Positions 6,315 through 10,404 of a stretch of 64,000 nucleotides of DNA are shown here, piece by piece. Numbering within the stretch: the first letter of the stretch is position 1; every line of letters starts with the position of its first letter. A program made the position numbers and the translations under genes. The stretch is taken from the NCBI GenBank assembly GCA_044229265.1, contig JBGATK010000006.1, forward strand, positions 8,232 through 72,231. The letters run 5' to 3'. This DNA comes from Minisyncoccia bacterium (GTDB taxonomy: Bacteria > Patescibacteriota > Minisyncoccia > Phycocordibacterales > UBA9973). The notes beneath the pieces were generated by a model. It ran no database searches. It saw only the letters and a list, made by a program, of their open reading frames with translations, and was not told the DNA's origin.

Positions 6315-7229
6315 ATGGCAAATAGTAAAGAAATTAAAAACCGAATAAAGAGTGTGAAGAATACCAAGAAAATCACAAAAGCGATGGAGCTCGTAGCTGC
6401 CAGCAAAATGAAGCGCGCAGTTTCTTCGACTTTGGCTTCTAGACTGTATGCCGAATATTCTTGGGAAGTGCTCACTTCTATTGCAAATAGCGGGGGAGAA
6501 ATTTCGCACCCACTTTTTGACGCTCGTAAGGAAACTAAAAATATTTTATTAGTACTCATCACTTCAAACCGTGGCCTCTGCGGAGCCTATAATGCGCAGG
6601 TCATAAAGAAAGCATTAGTATATTTAAAAAATGAAAATAATAAAGTAGATATTTTAACTATAGGCAAAAAAGGGGACGGAGCGATGCGAAGAATTGGGAG
6701 GAATGTCATCGCGAGCTTCACTGAGCTAGGAGACCACATCACTCTGCGCGACATTATGCCTATTTCTAAATTGATGATAGATGAATATACTAAAGGCACT
6801 TATGACAAAGTAGTCGTGGCTTACACAGACTTCGTTTCTGCTCTTACCCAAAAGCCAAATATTAAGCAAGTTCTTCCGGTTTCTAAAAATGATTTGAAAG
6901 AAATGCTCGACTCTGTTGGCGATTCTTCCCCTCGCCTTTCAGGAGAGGGGTCAGGGGTGAGGTTAAGTGGAGTAAATTACCTCTTTGAAGGCAATATGCA
7001 GATATTGCTCGGAAGCTTGGCAGAAAAGTTGACTCGCATGCAGATTTATCAGATGATGCTAGAGAGCAATGCCAGTGAGCAATCAAGTAGAATGGTGGCG
7101 ATGAAGAATGCTAGTGAAGCCTCTGGTGAAATGATTTCCGACCTGACATTAGTATTTAACAAAGCCCGCCAAGCCTCCATTACGCAAGAAATTTCAGAAA
7201 TAAGTGCAGGTATGGTTTCAGTAAGTTAA
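6315..7229 (+). CDS. atpG: F0F1 ATP synthase subunit gamma
   Basis: N-terminal IKxRIxSVxNTxKITKAMELVAASK. Contains the GC-rich in-frame insert described in findings. Confidence 0.9.
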   Translation: MANSKEIKNRIKSVKNTKKITKAMELVAASKMKRAVSSTLASRLYAEYSWEVLTSIANSGGEISHPLFDARKETKNILLVLITSNRGLCGAYNAQVIKKALVYLKNENNKVDILTIGKKGDGAMRRIGRNVIASFTELGDHITLRDIMPISKLMIDEYTKGTYDKVVVAYTDFVSALTQKPNIKQVLPVSKNDLKEMLDSVGDSSPRLSGEGSGVRLSGVNYLFEGNMQILLGSLAEKLTRMQIYQMMLESNASEQSSRMVAMKNASEASGEMISDLTLVFNKARQASITQEISEISAGMVSVS

Positions 7230-7301
7230 AAAATATTATTAAAAAACATTATTATTAAATTAAATCCTTCTTCGCATAAAGCTTCGAAGGACAAGAAAAT
7301 T

Positions 7302-8654
7302 ATGACAACAAAAGGAACAATCAAAAAAGTTATCGGGCCAGTTGTGGATGTAGAGTTTACAGGAGAATTGCCAGAAGTATATTCTGCACTCTGGGTAGAC
7401 AACAATGGTAAAAAGCTCGTGCTCGAAGTAGAGCAACACATTGGCGCCGGAGTAGTGCGTGCAGTGGCTATGGACACTACAGATGGCCTCGCTCGCGGAA
7501 TGGAAGTCTCTACAGATGGCATGCCCATCTCTGTGCCAGTCGGCAAGGAGACTCTCGGTAGAATTTTTAATGTTCTTGGAGATGTCATAGATGATGGATC
7601 ACCTGTAAAAGCAACAACTTCACCTATACACCGCAAAGCTCCAGATTTCGTCTCTCAAGCTACGAAAGTCGAAATCCTTGAAACTGGTATCAAGGTTATC
7701 GACCTTATTTGTCCTGTGCTGAAGGGTGGCAAGGTGGGACTCTTCGGAGGTGCCGGCGTGGGTAAGACTGTGGTCATCCAAGAGCTCATCCACAATATTG
7801 CATCAAATCACGGAGGCTACTCTGTGTTCGCCGGTGTGGGCGAGCGTACTCGTGAAGGAAATGACCTCTACCACGAAATGAAAGACAGTAAAGTTCTAGA
7901 CAAAGTGGCCATGGTCTTCGGTCAGATGAACGAACCACCAGGTGCTCGTATGCGTGTGGCACTTTCTGGTCTCACGATGGCAGAATATTTCCGTGATGAA
8001 GAAGGCAAGGACGTTCTATTTTTCATCGACAATATTTTCCGCTTTACACAAGCTGGTTCTGAAGTGTCTGCTCTCCTTGGCCGTATTCCATCGGCTGTGG
8101 GTTATCAGCCAACTCTCGCGACAGAAATGGGAGCGATGCAAGAGCGCATTACTAGTACAGACAAAGGCTCTGTGACCTCAGTGCAAGCCGTGTATGTGCC
8201 AGCGGACGACCTTACCGACCCTGCACCTGCGACTACATTCGCTCACCTAGACTCTACTGTGGTATTAAACCGTTCTCTTACTGAGATAGGTATTTACCCA
8301 GCTGTGGACCCGCTAGACTCTAGTTCTACTATTCTCGACCCGAATATCGTCGGCAAGGAACACTATGAAGTTGCTCGTGAAGTTCAAAGAGTTTTACAAA
8401 AATATAAAGACTTGCAAGATATTATTGCAATCTTGGGTATGGAAGAGCTTTCAGAAGCAGACAAAGAACTCGTGGCTCGCGCTCGTAAAATTCAAAAATT
8501 CCTCTCTCAGCCATTCTTCGTGGCAGAGCAATTCACTGGTGCACCGGGTGTGTATGTACCACTTTCAGATACGATTCGTTCATTCAAAGAAATATTGGCT
8601 GGTAAGCATGATGACAAAGCAGAAGGAGATTTTTATATGAAGGGTGCGCTTTAA
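7302..8654 (+). CDS. atpD: F0F1 ATP synthase subunit beta
   Basis: P-loop [15 protein letters not shown]-like region, 450 aa. Confidence 0.95.
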
Positions 8655-8660
8655 AAATTT

Positions 8661-9107
8661 ATGTCTAAACAGTTTAAATTGAAAATCATAACACCAGAGA
8701 AATTGATCCTAGAAGATATGGTAGATCAAGTCACTTTACCTACAATGGAAGGCGAGATAACTATTTTGGCGGATCATATTCCGATAATCGCAGCTCTGAA
8801 ATCCGGTGATATCGTGGCTAGTGCTTTTGGTGAATATATTCCTATGGCTGTGTCTGGCGGATTTGTGGAAGTTAAAATTGGCGAAAATAATATGACGGAA
8901 GTCGCGGTGCTCGCAGACTTTGCTGAGCATGTGGCAGATATGACAGATGAAAAAATAGCACAAGCAAAAGCCAAGGCCGAAGAATTAAAGAAACAAATGG
9001 AAAACAAAGACCATGTGGACTTTGAGCATTTCGAATCCGAACTCGAACGCTCCCTCACCAGAGTTAAGATAGCGGATAAGTGGAAAACTAAAAAATACAG
9101 AAGATAA
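8661..9107 (+). CDS. atpC: F0F1 ATP synthase subunit epsilon with a charged C-terminal extension
   Basis: beta-sandwich N-domain motifs, operon position, 148 aa. Confidence 0.85.
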   Translation: MSKQFKLKIITPEKLILEDMVDQVTLPTMEGEITILADHIPIIAALKSGDIVASAFGEYIPMAVSGGFVEVKIGENNMTEVAVLADFAEHVADMTDEKIAQAKAKAEELKKQMENKDHVDFEHFESELERSLTRVKIADKWKTKKYRR

Positions 9108-9128
9108 AATTTCTGGTATAATTATTTT

Positions 9129-9563
9129 ATGGAAAATTTAATTATTTCTAAATTTAGAAAATGGTCTCTACCTTTTTCACGTTTCGCTATATTTTTAATA
9201 TATTTTTGGTTTGGTATTTTGAAAGTTTTAGGTTACAGCCCTGCAAACCCACTAGTAGATGCATTATTACAACAAACAATGCCGTGGATGACGTTTGCTA
9301 CTTTTATATTATTCTTCGGATGGTTTGAAGTTTTGATAGGTATTTTGTTTTTATTTCCGCGTTTTACAAGAATCTCTGTAGTATTAATTACACTTCATTT
9401 AATAACTACAATTATGCCACTTTTTTTGTTAACAGAATCTTCTTGGCAATCATTTCTAATTCCTACTCTGGAAGGGCAATACATAATTAAAAATGTTTTG
9501 ATTATTTCTGCTGTTATGGGCATTTTTGCTCATACGCATATTCTTAAAAAATATAATAAATAA
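9129..9563 (+). CDS. DoxX-like integral membrane protein
   Basis: four predicted TM helices, no catalytic motif. Confidence 0.5.
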   Translation: MENLIISKFRKWSLPFSRFAIFLIYFWFGILKVLGYSPANPLVDALLQQTMPWMTFATFILFFGWFEVLIGILFLFPRFTRISVVLITLHLITTIMPLFLLTESSWQSFLIPTLEGQYIIKNVLIISAVMGIFAHTHILKKYNK

Positions 9564-9672
9564 TCAAGTGTTATTATTTTTTCTATGCTAGTATATTTTT
9601 ATGAGTAAACCCACACACTTATTTTAAAATGATATTTACAAATGATTATTAATATAATAAAAAAATAAGTGT

Positions 9673-10404
9673 ATGGGTAAATTTTTTGTAATTGCGACCC
9701 CGATAGGAAATATGGGTGACATAACATATAGGGCAATAGAGACGCTAAAAATAGTGGATTTGATACTATGTGAAGATACACGCGAAACTGGAAAACTTTT
9801 GCATAAATATGATATTAAAAAGCCGACTATGTCATACCATGCACAGAGCAAACTCGCAAAGACAGATAAGATTTTTGCATTACTTGAGGAAGGGAAAGAT
9901 CTCGCCCTTGTTTCCGACGCTGGCACTCCTGGAATATCAGACCCAGGAGCAATGCTTGTCTCTCAGATCAAAGAGAGATATAACCTCACCCCTAACCACT
10001 CTCCTGACAGGAGAGGGGTCGAGACGCAGTCCGGGGGCGAGGTGATTGTGCAAGTTATTCCAATCCCTGGTGCTTCAGCTGTTATTACTGCGCTCTCTGC
10101 ATCAGGATTGCCGACTCATGAATTTACATTTCTTGGATTTTTACCACACAAAAAGGGCAGAGAAACATTGTTTAAAGAAATAGCCGAGGCAAAGAGAACA
10201 ATGGTATTTTACGAATCACCACATAGAATTTTAAAAACTCTAGAATCATTAAATAAATTTTGCCCAGGAAAAAAAGTCTGCATAGCTCGTGAAATTACTA
10301 AAATCTATGAAGAATTTAAAATTGGTTCTGCTAACGAGCTATTAGAATATCTAACAAAAAATCCAGTAAAACAAAAAGGGGAATTCACTGTAATCGTTTC
10401 TTAA
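9673..10404 (+). CDS. rsmI: 16S rRNA (cytidine1402-2'-O)-methyltransferase
   Basis: tetrapyrrole-methylase fold motifs IATPIGNxGDIT, LCEDTRxT, VSDAGTPGISDPG, IPGASA. About 20-aa GC-rich insert (see findings). Confidence 0.85.
   Translation: MGKFFVIATPIGNMGDITYRAIETLKIVDLILCEDTRETGKLLHKYDIKKPTMSYHAQSKLAKTDKIFALLEEGKDLALVSDAGTPGISDPGAMLVSQIKERYNLTPNHSPDRRGVETQSGGEVIVQVIPIPGASAVITALSASGLPTHEFTFLGFLPHKKGRETLFKEIAEAKRTMVFYESPHRILKTLESLNKFCPGKKVCIAREITKIYEEFKIGSANELLEYLTKNPVKQKGEFTVIVS

Follow-up and report, generated by a model that had tools for sequence, protein, structure and literature searches.

The 64-kb stretch of contig JBGATK010000006.1 analysed here, called the window in the following, comes from a Minisyncoccia bacterium and is A+T-rich (about 34% G+C); the best homologues of its AtpG and RsmI proteins are those of Nomurabacteria/Paceibacteria-like members of the Candidate Phyla Radiation (CPR). 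Two of its genes contain short G/C-rich palindromic elements, the only two element loci visible for this organism within the window: atpG, coding for the gamma subunit of the F1 ATP synthase, and rsmI, coding for the 16S rRNA C1402 2'-O-methyltransferase (Table 1). The atpG open reading frame (ORF) has PF00231 homologues with up to 99% identity and also matches solved gamma chains, while the rsmI ORF has PF00590 homologues and matches Escherichia coli RsmI (5hw4). Both elements had been noticed in a preliminary description of this DNA as in-frame inserts sharing a 13-nt core; its coordinates were right for rsmI, but the atpG element lies one base further on (6928-6962, not 6927-6961). Its statement that the frame is preserved was confirmed for both ORFs, together with the peptides it quoted: the atpG element is read as SSPRLSGEGSGVR, which is also the insert peptide of AtpG, and the rsmI element as LTPNHSPDRRGVETQSGGE, the insert peptide of RsmI being LTPNHSPDRRGVETQSGGEV.

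Table 1. Elements and host genes in the window, with the hairpin superfamily copies of related contigs (Y, pyrimidine; R, purine; PIT, potential intrastrand triplex; TM, triplex motif)
Feature	Position	Strand	Remark
atpG, F1 ATP synthase gamma subunit, 304 aa	6315-7229	+	host of short-form element
Short-form triplex-type (BoxC/PIT/TM-like) repeat in atpG	6928-6963 (element 6928-6962, 35 nt, then T)	+	architecture scan
atpG element, Y stem CCCCTCGCC	6928-6936	+	
atpG element, first loop TTTCA	6937-6941	+	
atpG element, R stem GGAGAGGGG	6942-6950	+	
atpG element, second loop TCA	6951-6953	+	
atpG element, G-rich third strand GGGGTGAGG	6954-6962	+	
rsmI, 16S rRNA C1402 2'-O-methyltransferase, 243 aa	9673-10404	+	host of long-form element
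Long ('palindromic') form in rsmI, 59 nt	9984-10042	canonical on minus strand	architecture scan
rsmI element, CCTCGCCCC	10042-10034	-	
rsmI element, mini-hairpin spacer	10033-10019	-	
rsmI element, Y stem CCCCTCTCC	10018-10010	-	
rsmI element, first loop TGTCA	10009-10005	-	
rsmI element, R stem GGAGAGTGG	10004-9996	-	
rsmI element, second loop TTA	9995-9993	-	
rsmI element, third strand GGGGTGAGG	9992-9984	-	
rsmI element, plus-strand reading with 15-nt loop and third strand GGGGCGAGG	Y 9996-10004, R 10010-10018, third strand 10034-10042	+	
Small palindrome TGTCAAAGATGCCCTTTGACA in holB (13419-14105)	13978-13998	+	in frame, not triplex family
Hairpin superfamily copies	L061 7292, 9262, 10318; L037 913; L043 2636; L046 10316; L051 10314		
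Hairpin superfamily copies, continued	L080 7659, 12643; L018 2168; L030 6197; L032 534; L072 4845		

The common core is exact: the 13-mer CAGGAGAGGGGTC occurs at 6940-6952 in atpG and at 10008-10020 in rsmI, and nowhere else in the 64 kb; with up to two mismatches, four matches are found against 0.27 expected, a number reached by none of 100 shuffles. The third of these matches (24007-24019, two mismatches) lies in ordinary A+T-rich coding sequence without arms and was treated as chance. GGGGYGAGG occurs three times in the window, always within the two elements (0.12 expected), and a 24-mer taken from the atpG copy has a two-mismatch match to the minus strand of the rsmI copy only. The top inverted repeat of the entire window is formed by 6919-6965 and 9981-10027 (47 nt, 83%); the atpG copy thus matches the left part of the rsmI copy in reverse-complement orientation.

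Both elements consist of a pyrimidine (Y) stem, a loop, a purine (R) stem, a second loop and a G-rich third block. The G/C-rich terminal arms of the preliminary description are therefore correct as sequences, but they are the third-strand blocks of this Y-R-R motif and not simple terminal repeats. Scanning the 64 kb for the triplex-type architecture returned just the atpG and rsmI loci, and nothing in 30 shuffles. Block lengths are 9/5/9/3/9, with one Watson-Crick stem mismatch, in atpG (plus strand) and in rsmI (minus strand); the plus-strand reading of rsmI is the same except for a second loop of 15 nt. The rsmI copy displays the Y-R-R layout on both strands, the atpG copy on the sense strand, and the 12 "extra" nt of the former are the variable mini-hairpin of the canonical long form. 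Set antiparallel to the purine stem, the third block gives no triad mismatch in atpG, where only G.G, A.A and T.A oppositions occur, and one in each rsmI reading; judging from the sequence, this block can pair on the purine stem via G.G-C, A.A-T and T.A-T triads when the DNA is single-stranded. In its RNA version, the element is no more than a strong hairpin. Indeed, in ViennaRNA folding, which considers hairpins only, both copies performed better than shuffles, with z-scores of -1.9 as RNA and -2.7 as DNA for atpG, and of -3.3 (plus strand) and -4.2 (minus strand) as RNA, and -4.0 and -4.6 as DNA, for rsmI. No Rfam family was found over 6850-10120, either at the gathering threshold or at E<=1. 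The same element is also present in rsmI of a strain with about 95% nucleotide identity (L255), where it is shortened by 3 nt in frame.

Compared with close orthologues and with solved structures, both copies are insertions; they are in frame, stop-free and located within flexible linkers. In RsmI the element corresponds to residues 102-122, which are unmatched in the E. coli enzyme and fall between its residues 101 and 102; moreover, 223-aa orthologues with 87-92% identity (P0123-P0125; loci L002 and L003) are without the insert and show a clean empty site in the DNA. AlphaFold models the insert with low confidence, as a segment that follows helix 91-102 and precedes strand 124-129. In the gamma subunit, residues 202-220 are missing from the solved chains, including the best one (9o19_G), and are modelled as coil with a predicted local distance difference test score (pLDDT) <50 between helix 191-201 and the C-terminal helix. 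The mapping onto structures proposed in the preliminary description thus placed both inserts in low-confidence coil or linker segments. Its claim that residues are added where homologues have none holds for RsmI; for gamma it is only partly right, since the loop varies in length in all Nomurabacteria orthologues. We infer that the inserts are transcribed and translated as additional loop residues. Alternatively, they might be missing from the mature proteins, owing to translational bypass, RNA excision or protein splicing, or be assembly artefacts. Short G/C-rich hairpin inserts in genes are known from Byp elements and from the GC clusters of fungal mitochondria, which counts in favour of this reading; those of yeast mitochondria are likewise G/C-rich hairpins in an A+T-rich background, of organellar location. 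However, every in-ORF copy keeps the frame and is stop-free, with indels that are multiples of three, as in the 3-nt deletion of L255; the same elements were recovered from independent projects and assemblers (JGI, ENA, NCBI, Logan), and there are no intein motifs. Loss of the inserts before the mature protein, or their artefactual origin, is accordingly considered extremely improbable.

The closest known counterpart is the BoxC repeat of E. coli, which was rediscovered as "potential intrastrand triplex" (PIT) and renamed TMECO (Holder et al. 2015, PMC4666352). TMECO follows the pattern CCCTCNCCC N3-6 GGGNGAGGG N3 GGGNGAGGG; it has 23 copies in strain K-12, "always located intergenically", and 3610 copies in 262 proteobacterial genomes, with abundant G/C-rich relatives in Cyanobacteria. 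It showed neither promoter nor terminator activity, is unlinked to transposons, phages and plasmids, and is associated with local sequence variability (PMC4666352). The same motif was later read as a G-quadruplex (G4)/hairpin switch, again confined to intergenic regions (Kaplan et al. 2016, PMC5100583). The window copies share with it the order of Y stem, loop, R stem, 3-nt loop and G-rich third block, with nearly the same blocks, as well as a TTA-type second loop, the existence of short and "palindromic" two-strand forms, conserved stems with variable loops, and dispersal in multiple copies without a known mobilising gene. In an alignment with three E. coli TMECO copies (Table 1 of PMC4666352) and with Ignavibacteria, Calothrix and Bacteroidota copies, GGAGAG.G and GGGTGAGG are invariant, and the atpG copy has the CTCGCC stem mismatch of the E. 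coli type "A mm". The published TMECO pattern itself has no match in the 64-kb window, because the blocks are offset by one base (CCCCTCNCC/GGNGAGGGG/GGGGNGAGG here, against CCCTCNCCC/GGGNGAGGG/GGGNGAGGG); the copies were therefore treated as a sister sub-family. Their G tracts are 2-4-4-2 instead of 3-3-3-3, which makes a three-tetrad G4 impossible. Both window copies are G/C-rich, structure-defined dispersed repeats of the BoxC/PIT/"intrastrand triplex motif" kind, and probably selfish or neutral DNA. The main difference is in their location, since the copies described here lie in frame within protein-coding genes, whereas those of E. coli are reported to be exclusively intergenic (PMC4666352, PMC5100583). 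The kind of repeat is thus already known; for its in-frame location in essential genes, no description was found in the literature search.

The distribution of the motif was studied with the pattern CTCTCCT N3-5 AGGAGAGGG N1-5 GGGGNGAGG, which has 24 specified bases, on one genome per species. At least 120 genome stretches match, from many phyla: among them are Cyanobacteria (Nostoc, Rivularia, Scytonema, Calothrix, Dolichospermum), Bacteroidota, Ignavibacteria, Chloroflexota, Armatimonadota, Verrucomicrobiota, Nitrospirota, Bosea, Methylobacterium, Thiotrichales and Melainabacteria, and, within the CPR, Nomura-, Moran-, Falkow-, Gracili- and Saccharibacteria. Related CPR contigs have 2-5 copies per 10-20 kb, inside as well as outside ORFs, as the search of related genomes suggested in the preliminary description was meant to reveal. 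In contrast with the E. coli repeat, for which no phage association was reported, the motif is also present in 49 viral-contig stretches of IMG/VR (L204-L252), with up to five copies per 7.3 kb (L206). Across hosts the stems are conserved and the loops vary; the long form, in which a variable mini-hairpin separates CCTCACCCC from the Y stem, is represented by many copies in Nomurabacteria, Saccharibacteria, Rivularia, Bacteroidota and others, and one Ignavibacteria copy has the sequence of a composite of both window copies. Small or G/C-rich hairpins nested in the loops or spacers of triplex-type copies were also observed (L080 3844-3925 and the left spacers of L106, L119 and L132), such as GCCCGCCCGCC...GGCGGGCGGG within a second loop, which suggests hairpins inserted into hairpins.

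The ends of the copies bear on the nature of the element. In 177 copies the flanks are random past CCC...T, no target-site duplication (TSD) of 2-6 nt was found at any offset, with nothing above permutation, and neither conserved ends nor terminal inverted repeats were found beyond the motif. These data speak against a transposase-mobilised element that colonises ORFs by means of terminal inverted repeats, whether a miniature inverted-repeat transposable element, which is recognised by such repeats and by its TSD, or a Rickettsia palindromic element (RPE), to which type the preliminary description had compared the inserts. According to the reviews PMC10969869 and PMC2229807, RPEs (Ogata et al. 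2000) are about 100-150 bp long, specific to Rickettsia, and encode a conserved peptide per family. The likeness is real, as both are palindromic repeats lying in frame in conserved housekeeping proteins, at loops compatible with the fold, in hosts with reduced genomes; however, the elements described here measure 35 and 59 nt, are found across phyla rather than in one lineage, and are read in all six frames. Furthermore, Pfam analysis of 30 of the 63 ORFs of the window, mainly those of unclear function, returned housekeeping, cell-wall and type IV secretion system-like proteins, or no match, and neither a transposase nor a RAYT gene was among them. An RPE- or MITE-type nature is consequently regarded as very unlikely, and that part of the preliminary description was abandoned, whereas its more general idea of a selfish repeat agrees with a single dispersed hairpin family that sits in ORFs without breaking them and is missing from close orthologues.

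A further parallel is offered by the repetitive extragenic palindromic (REP) sequences of the REP/REPIN-RAYT systems and other GTAG- or CGTC-tagged palindromes, which are imperfect palindromes of 20-40 nt occurring as singlets and inverted doublets, dispersed, without TSD, and presumed to propagate through single-stranded hairpins (PMC3116915, PMC3733652). REPs are extragenic and tagged with GTAG or CGTC, and a RAYT gene accompanies them in the genome, while the window copies are intragenic and no such tag was found in the flanks of the copies. Perfect or near-perfect inverted repeats in functional genes of A+T-rich, reduced genomes are also found in the mitochondrial DNA of Nematomorpha; those are organellar, reach 284 bp, and have both arms encoding conserved protein, unlike the short elements of the present study, which encode non-conserved loop residues (PMC6649704).

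Location within genes is not peculiar to the window. In the genome scan, long ORFs contained 7 of 12 CPR copies and 14 of 91 copies from other low-GC loci (Fisher p = 0.002), a difference to which the higher coding density of CPR genomes contributes. Hosts of in-frame copies confirmed by Pfam are Dus, FemAB, UvrC, LigA, HtpX-type M48, Fpg and UvrD in the CPR, and a P-type ATPase, a Ser/Thr kinase, PatG, a RluA-type synthase, NB-ARC/TPR proteins and an M24 peptidase outside it. As several of the CPR hosts are DNA-repair genes, a role as DNA-uptake sequence was considered and dropped, given the far too low density of copies, the cross-phylum occurrence of the motif and the small sample. A UvrD gene of Moranbacteria type (L165 833-4228) contains an intein (Hint/Intein_splicing domains) in addition to the in-frame triplex-type repeat. 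All six combinations of orientation and phase occur, with peptides such as LTPSPSPYKGEG, PHPNPLLKGEG, LSLSRRGVGGEV and PRLSGEGSGVR; thus, the unit is a nucleotide element and not a protein module. Near rsmI in the relatives, copies away from the rsmI site number three in ORFs, all in the atpG loop, and eight in intergenic regions, the pattern expected if most insertions into ORFs are purged. Some intergenic triplex-type copies (L001 16682-16724; L012 737-782 and 5415-5447; L080 12108-12142) end in GAGGTGA 4-11 nt ahead of the start codon of the next gene, for instance atpC or holB, so that the G-rich third block doubles as a Shine-Dalgarno sequence.

The rsmI site shows how its occupants change. 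Many Nomurabacteria carry the element there, read as LTPSPLSLSRRGVGGEV, others carry its reverse complement (LTPNPSPYQGEGRRGEV), and about 40% are empty; both orientations are thus met at one site (L001-type versus L010/L012-type). In the preliminary description, the same peptide in orthologues would have pointed to ordinary sequence. Such sharing does exist, formally, in the many RsmI proteins with LTPSPLSLSRRGVGGEV; however, these copies belong to another sub-family and occur in either orientation, and other orthologues have an empty site or an unrelated palindrome instead, which speaks for recurrent occupation and against ordinary conserved sequence. The two copies of L001, in atpG and in rsmI, share 96% identity over 53 nt, and insert types are scattered across a neighbour-joining (NJ) tree of RsmI. 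The 13-mer CAGGAGAGGGGTC was found in nine fetched loci of other phyla and in none of 83 related CPR loci: as a sub-family signature, it is common to both window copies and absent from the orthologous copies of other genomes. Repeated copying or replacement of copies within genomes is favoured.

The same loops also harbour many other palindromes. The survey covered the rsmI site in loci L004-L083, orthologous to about 9975-10045 of the window, and the atpG loop (about 6910-6975). The 47 rsmI loci with linkers of at least 14 aa contain at least 10 unrelated inserts, nearly all of them perfect or near-perfect palindromes, most of which start directly after TT(T/C)AA(T/C). Among the distinct long linkers, 45 of 46 fold with z below -2 (median -5.4), against 1 of 47 control segments of the same genes (median +0.2). 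The gamma loop of the relatives contains equally varied palindromes; examples from the loops are TCAACAAACTCTGCTATCGCAGAAAATGTTGA, doubled AAGGACnGTCCTT, GTCAAAGACGGTCTTTGAC doublets and CTGAGGCAAGACCTCAG. Counting hairpins with a stem of 10 bp or more in related contigs (821 kb) gave 272, compared with 80 in shuffles; of the 272, 164 lie within ORFs, and several multi-copy palindrome families are found both in frame and between genes. One contig (L061) has an identical 42-nt palindrome in three genes. It belongs to a hairpin superfamily with the constant frame (A)ACTTGG-N11-CCAAGTGG-N11'-CCAAGT(T) and a variable core, whose copies are perfect and typically 42-46 nt long, the L051 locus being a single unit of about 21 nt; the copies with an identified host gene lie in frame in atpG and rsmI (Table 1). 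In the window itself, holB contains the small palindrome TGTCAAAG-N5-CTTTGACA, encoding MSKMPFD; most orthologues have an occupant at this site, in which the stem is conserved while the loop differs, and a second copy of this type lies between genes upstream of dnaK (18771-18791). Another small family, built on AGGCAAGACCT within a palindrome (window 34806-34828; L017, L032, L035, L049, L061), lies between genes in the window; in L032, L035 and L049 it forms an in-frame part of rsmI. In L048 (7986-8021) a perfect 36-nt palindrome within an ORF includes TTCAGACGGCCGTCTGAA, an inverted pair of the Neisseria-type DNA uptake 10-mer, probably by coincidence.

The strong folding of the linkers could be taken as the mark of a functional cis-element, that is, a hairpin or a G4- or Shine-Dalgarno-like G-rich tract selected at domain boundaries of the mRNA, or acting on DNA; it might cause ribosome pausing for co-translational folding, or affect mRNA processing or stability in the atp operon. 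In agreement with this, both inserts lie at domain junctions, compensatory changes in short alleles preserve the palindrome, the intergenic copies of relatives place GAGGTGA ahead of start codons, and the E. coli relatives have been proposed to act as a G4-hairpin-duplex switch (PMC5100583). However, the roughly 40% of rsmI orthologues without an insert include the closest ones, the occupants of the site are unrelated in sequence and length, and all six frame and orientation combinations occur; palindrome-preserving double changes can also result from mutation, by intrastrand template switching. In addition, according to the summary in PMC4666352, earlier PIT tests in E. coli revealed no promoter, terminator or in vivo polymerase effect. 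A cis-acting function is, on these grounds, unlikely.

Mutation alone might also generate such sequences: the palindromes could arise in situ in mutation-tolerant loops, through quasi-palindrome template switching and without any movement. Indeed, "empty" rsmI alleles are already quasi-palindromes, from which the perfect variants differ by paired changes, as illustrated by L050 (CATCTCAGCGATAGCGTAGAT) and the perfect L070 (ATCTACGCTATAGCGTAGAT), which have the same length; moreover, many loop occupants are unique perfect palindromes. This process is probably the source of some of the small non-triplex palindromes, but it cannot be that of the triplex-type family, as it does not yield one motif of 24 specified bases at unrelated loci in many phyla, and it leaves unexplained both the 96% identical copies of L001 and the identical palindromes in three genes of L061. 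As a general explanation, local de novo origin is thus quite improbable. A broader proposal, which is possible although tentative, is that Nomurabacteria/Paceibacteria-type CPR have an active process that generates or inserts hairpins and loads the same codon junctions with many unrelated families of perfect palindromes, the triplex repeat being only one of them and the hairpin superfamily with the ACTTGG/CCAAGT frame another; the position after TT(T/C)AA(T/C) in rsmI and the gamma-subunit loop may be examples of such junctions. If true, integration would be directed by structure or site (hairpin into hairpin), rather than reflecting mere survivorship, and the elements would steadily supply minimal genomes with new loops in their proteins. 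The unexpected part of these results, and the one most worthy of follow-up, is that unrelated perfect palindromes occupy the same protein loops again and again.

For the triplex-type family, the picture proposed is that of selfish or neutral DNA, which would be copied to new sites at the DNA level, in either orientation and without TSD. The likely route would involve single-stranded hairpin or triplex intermediates that form during replication or repair, with either template switching or a putative trans-acting enzyme responsible for the copying. Copies in ORFs would persist only when the frame is kept, stops are avoided and the location is a disordered surface loop; as a consequence, the same few loops would be reoccupied, and copies outside them would be mostly intergenic. 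Several points weigh against this picture. The insertion event was not directly caught, and the NJ tree of RsmI is too poorly resolved for gain and loss counts; copies are only slightly more similar within than between genomes (0.81 versus 0.76 overall), a weak difference. The Pfam analysis described above, with no match to a transposase or RAYT among the ORFs scanned, counts here as well, and the translation of the inserts is deduced rather than observed. The TMECO triplex forms from single-stranded DNA in vitro and was not shown in vivo, while purine-motif triplexes do not form in RNA (PMC4666352), so that the triplex may be irrelevant to propagation. Finally, drift of selfish DNA alone can hardly account for 9-nt blocks that are nearly identical across phyla; a conserved function or recognition factor may lie behind them.

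BoxC/PIT/triplex-motif repeats, known for about 30 years, have been described as strictly intergenic. Several CPR classes have in-frame copies in essential genes, among them those coding for the ATP synthase gamma subunit, for RsmI and for enzymes of DNA repair, and some genes of other phyla contain them too, which shows that this family can sit inside proteins without breaking them. The family is thus defined at the DNA level and tolerates translation, and it offers natural filled and empty alleles for the study of insertion and excision. Being short islands of G/C-rich sequence, its copies will confound the alignment of CPR proteins, the placing of their domain boundaries and phylogenies built on their genes. 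As so many unrelated perfect palindromes are found in the same loops, it becomes possible to test in bacteria, with metagenomic population data, how "coding palindromes" originate.

Other features of the window were also recorded. A TraG/VirD4-like coupling ATPase with a treble-clef zinc finger (20835-23072), a PaaX-like protein (18190-18705), an N6/N4 DNA methylase (33210-34460) and a Bro-N domain protein (56624-57421) hint at mobile or phage-derived DNA. Just upstream of tRNA-Ile(GAT) (2327-2399) lies a 66-nt G/C-rich imperfect palindrome (2231-2296), followed by GTGTAGTTCAGTGG, a duplicate of the 5' end of the same tRNA; the arrangement could represent an insertion scar or a small structured RNA.

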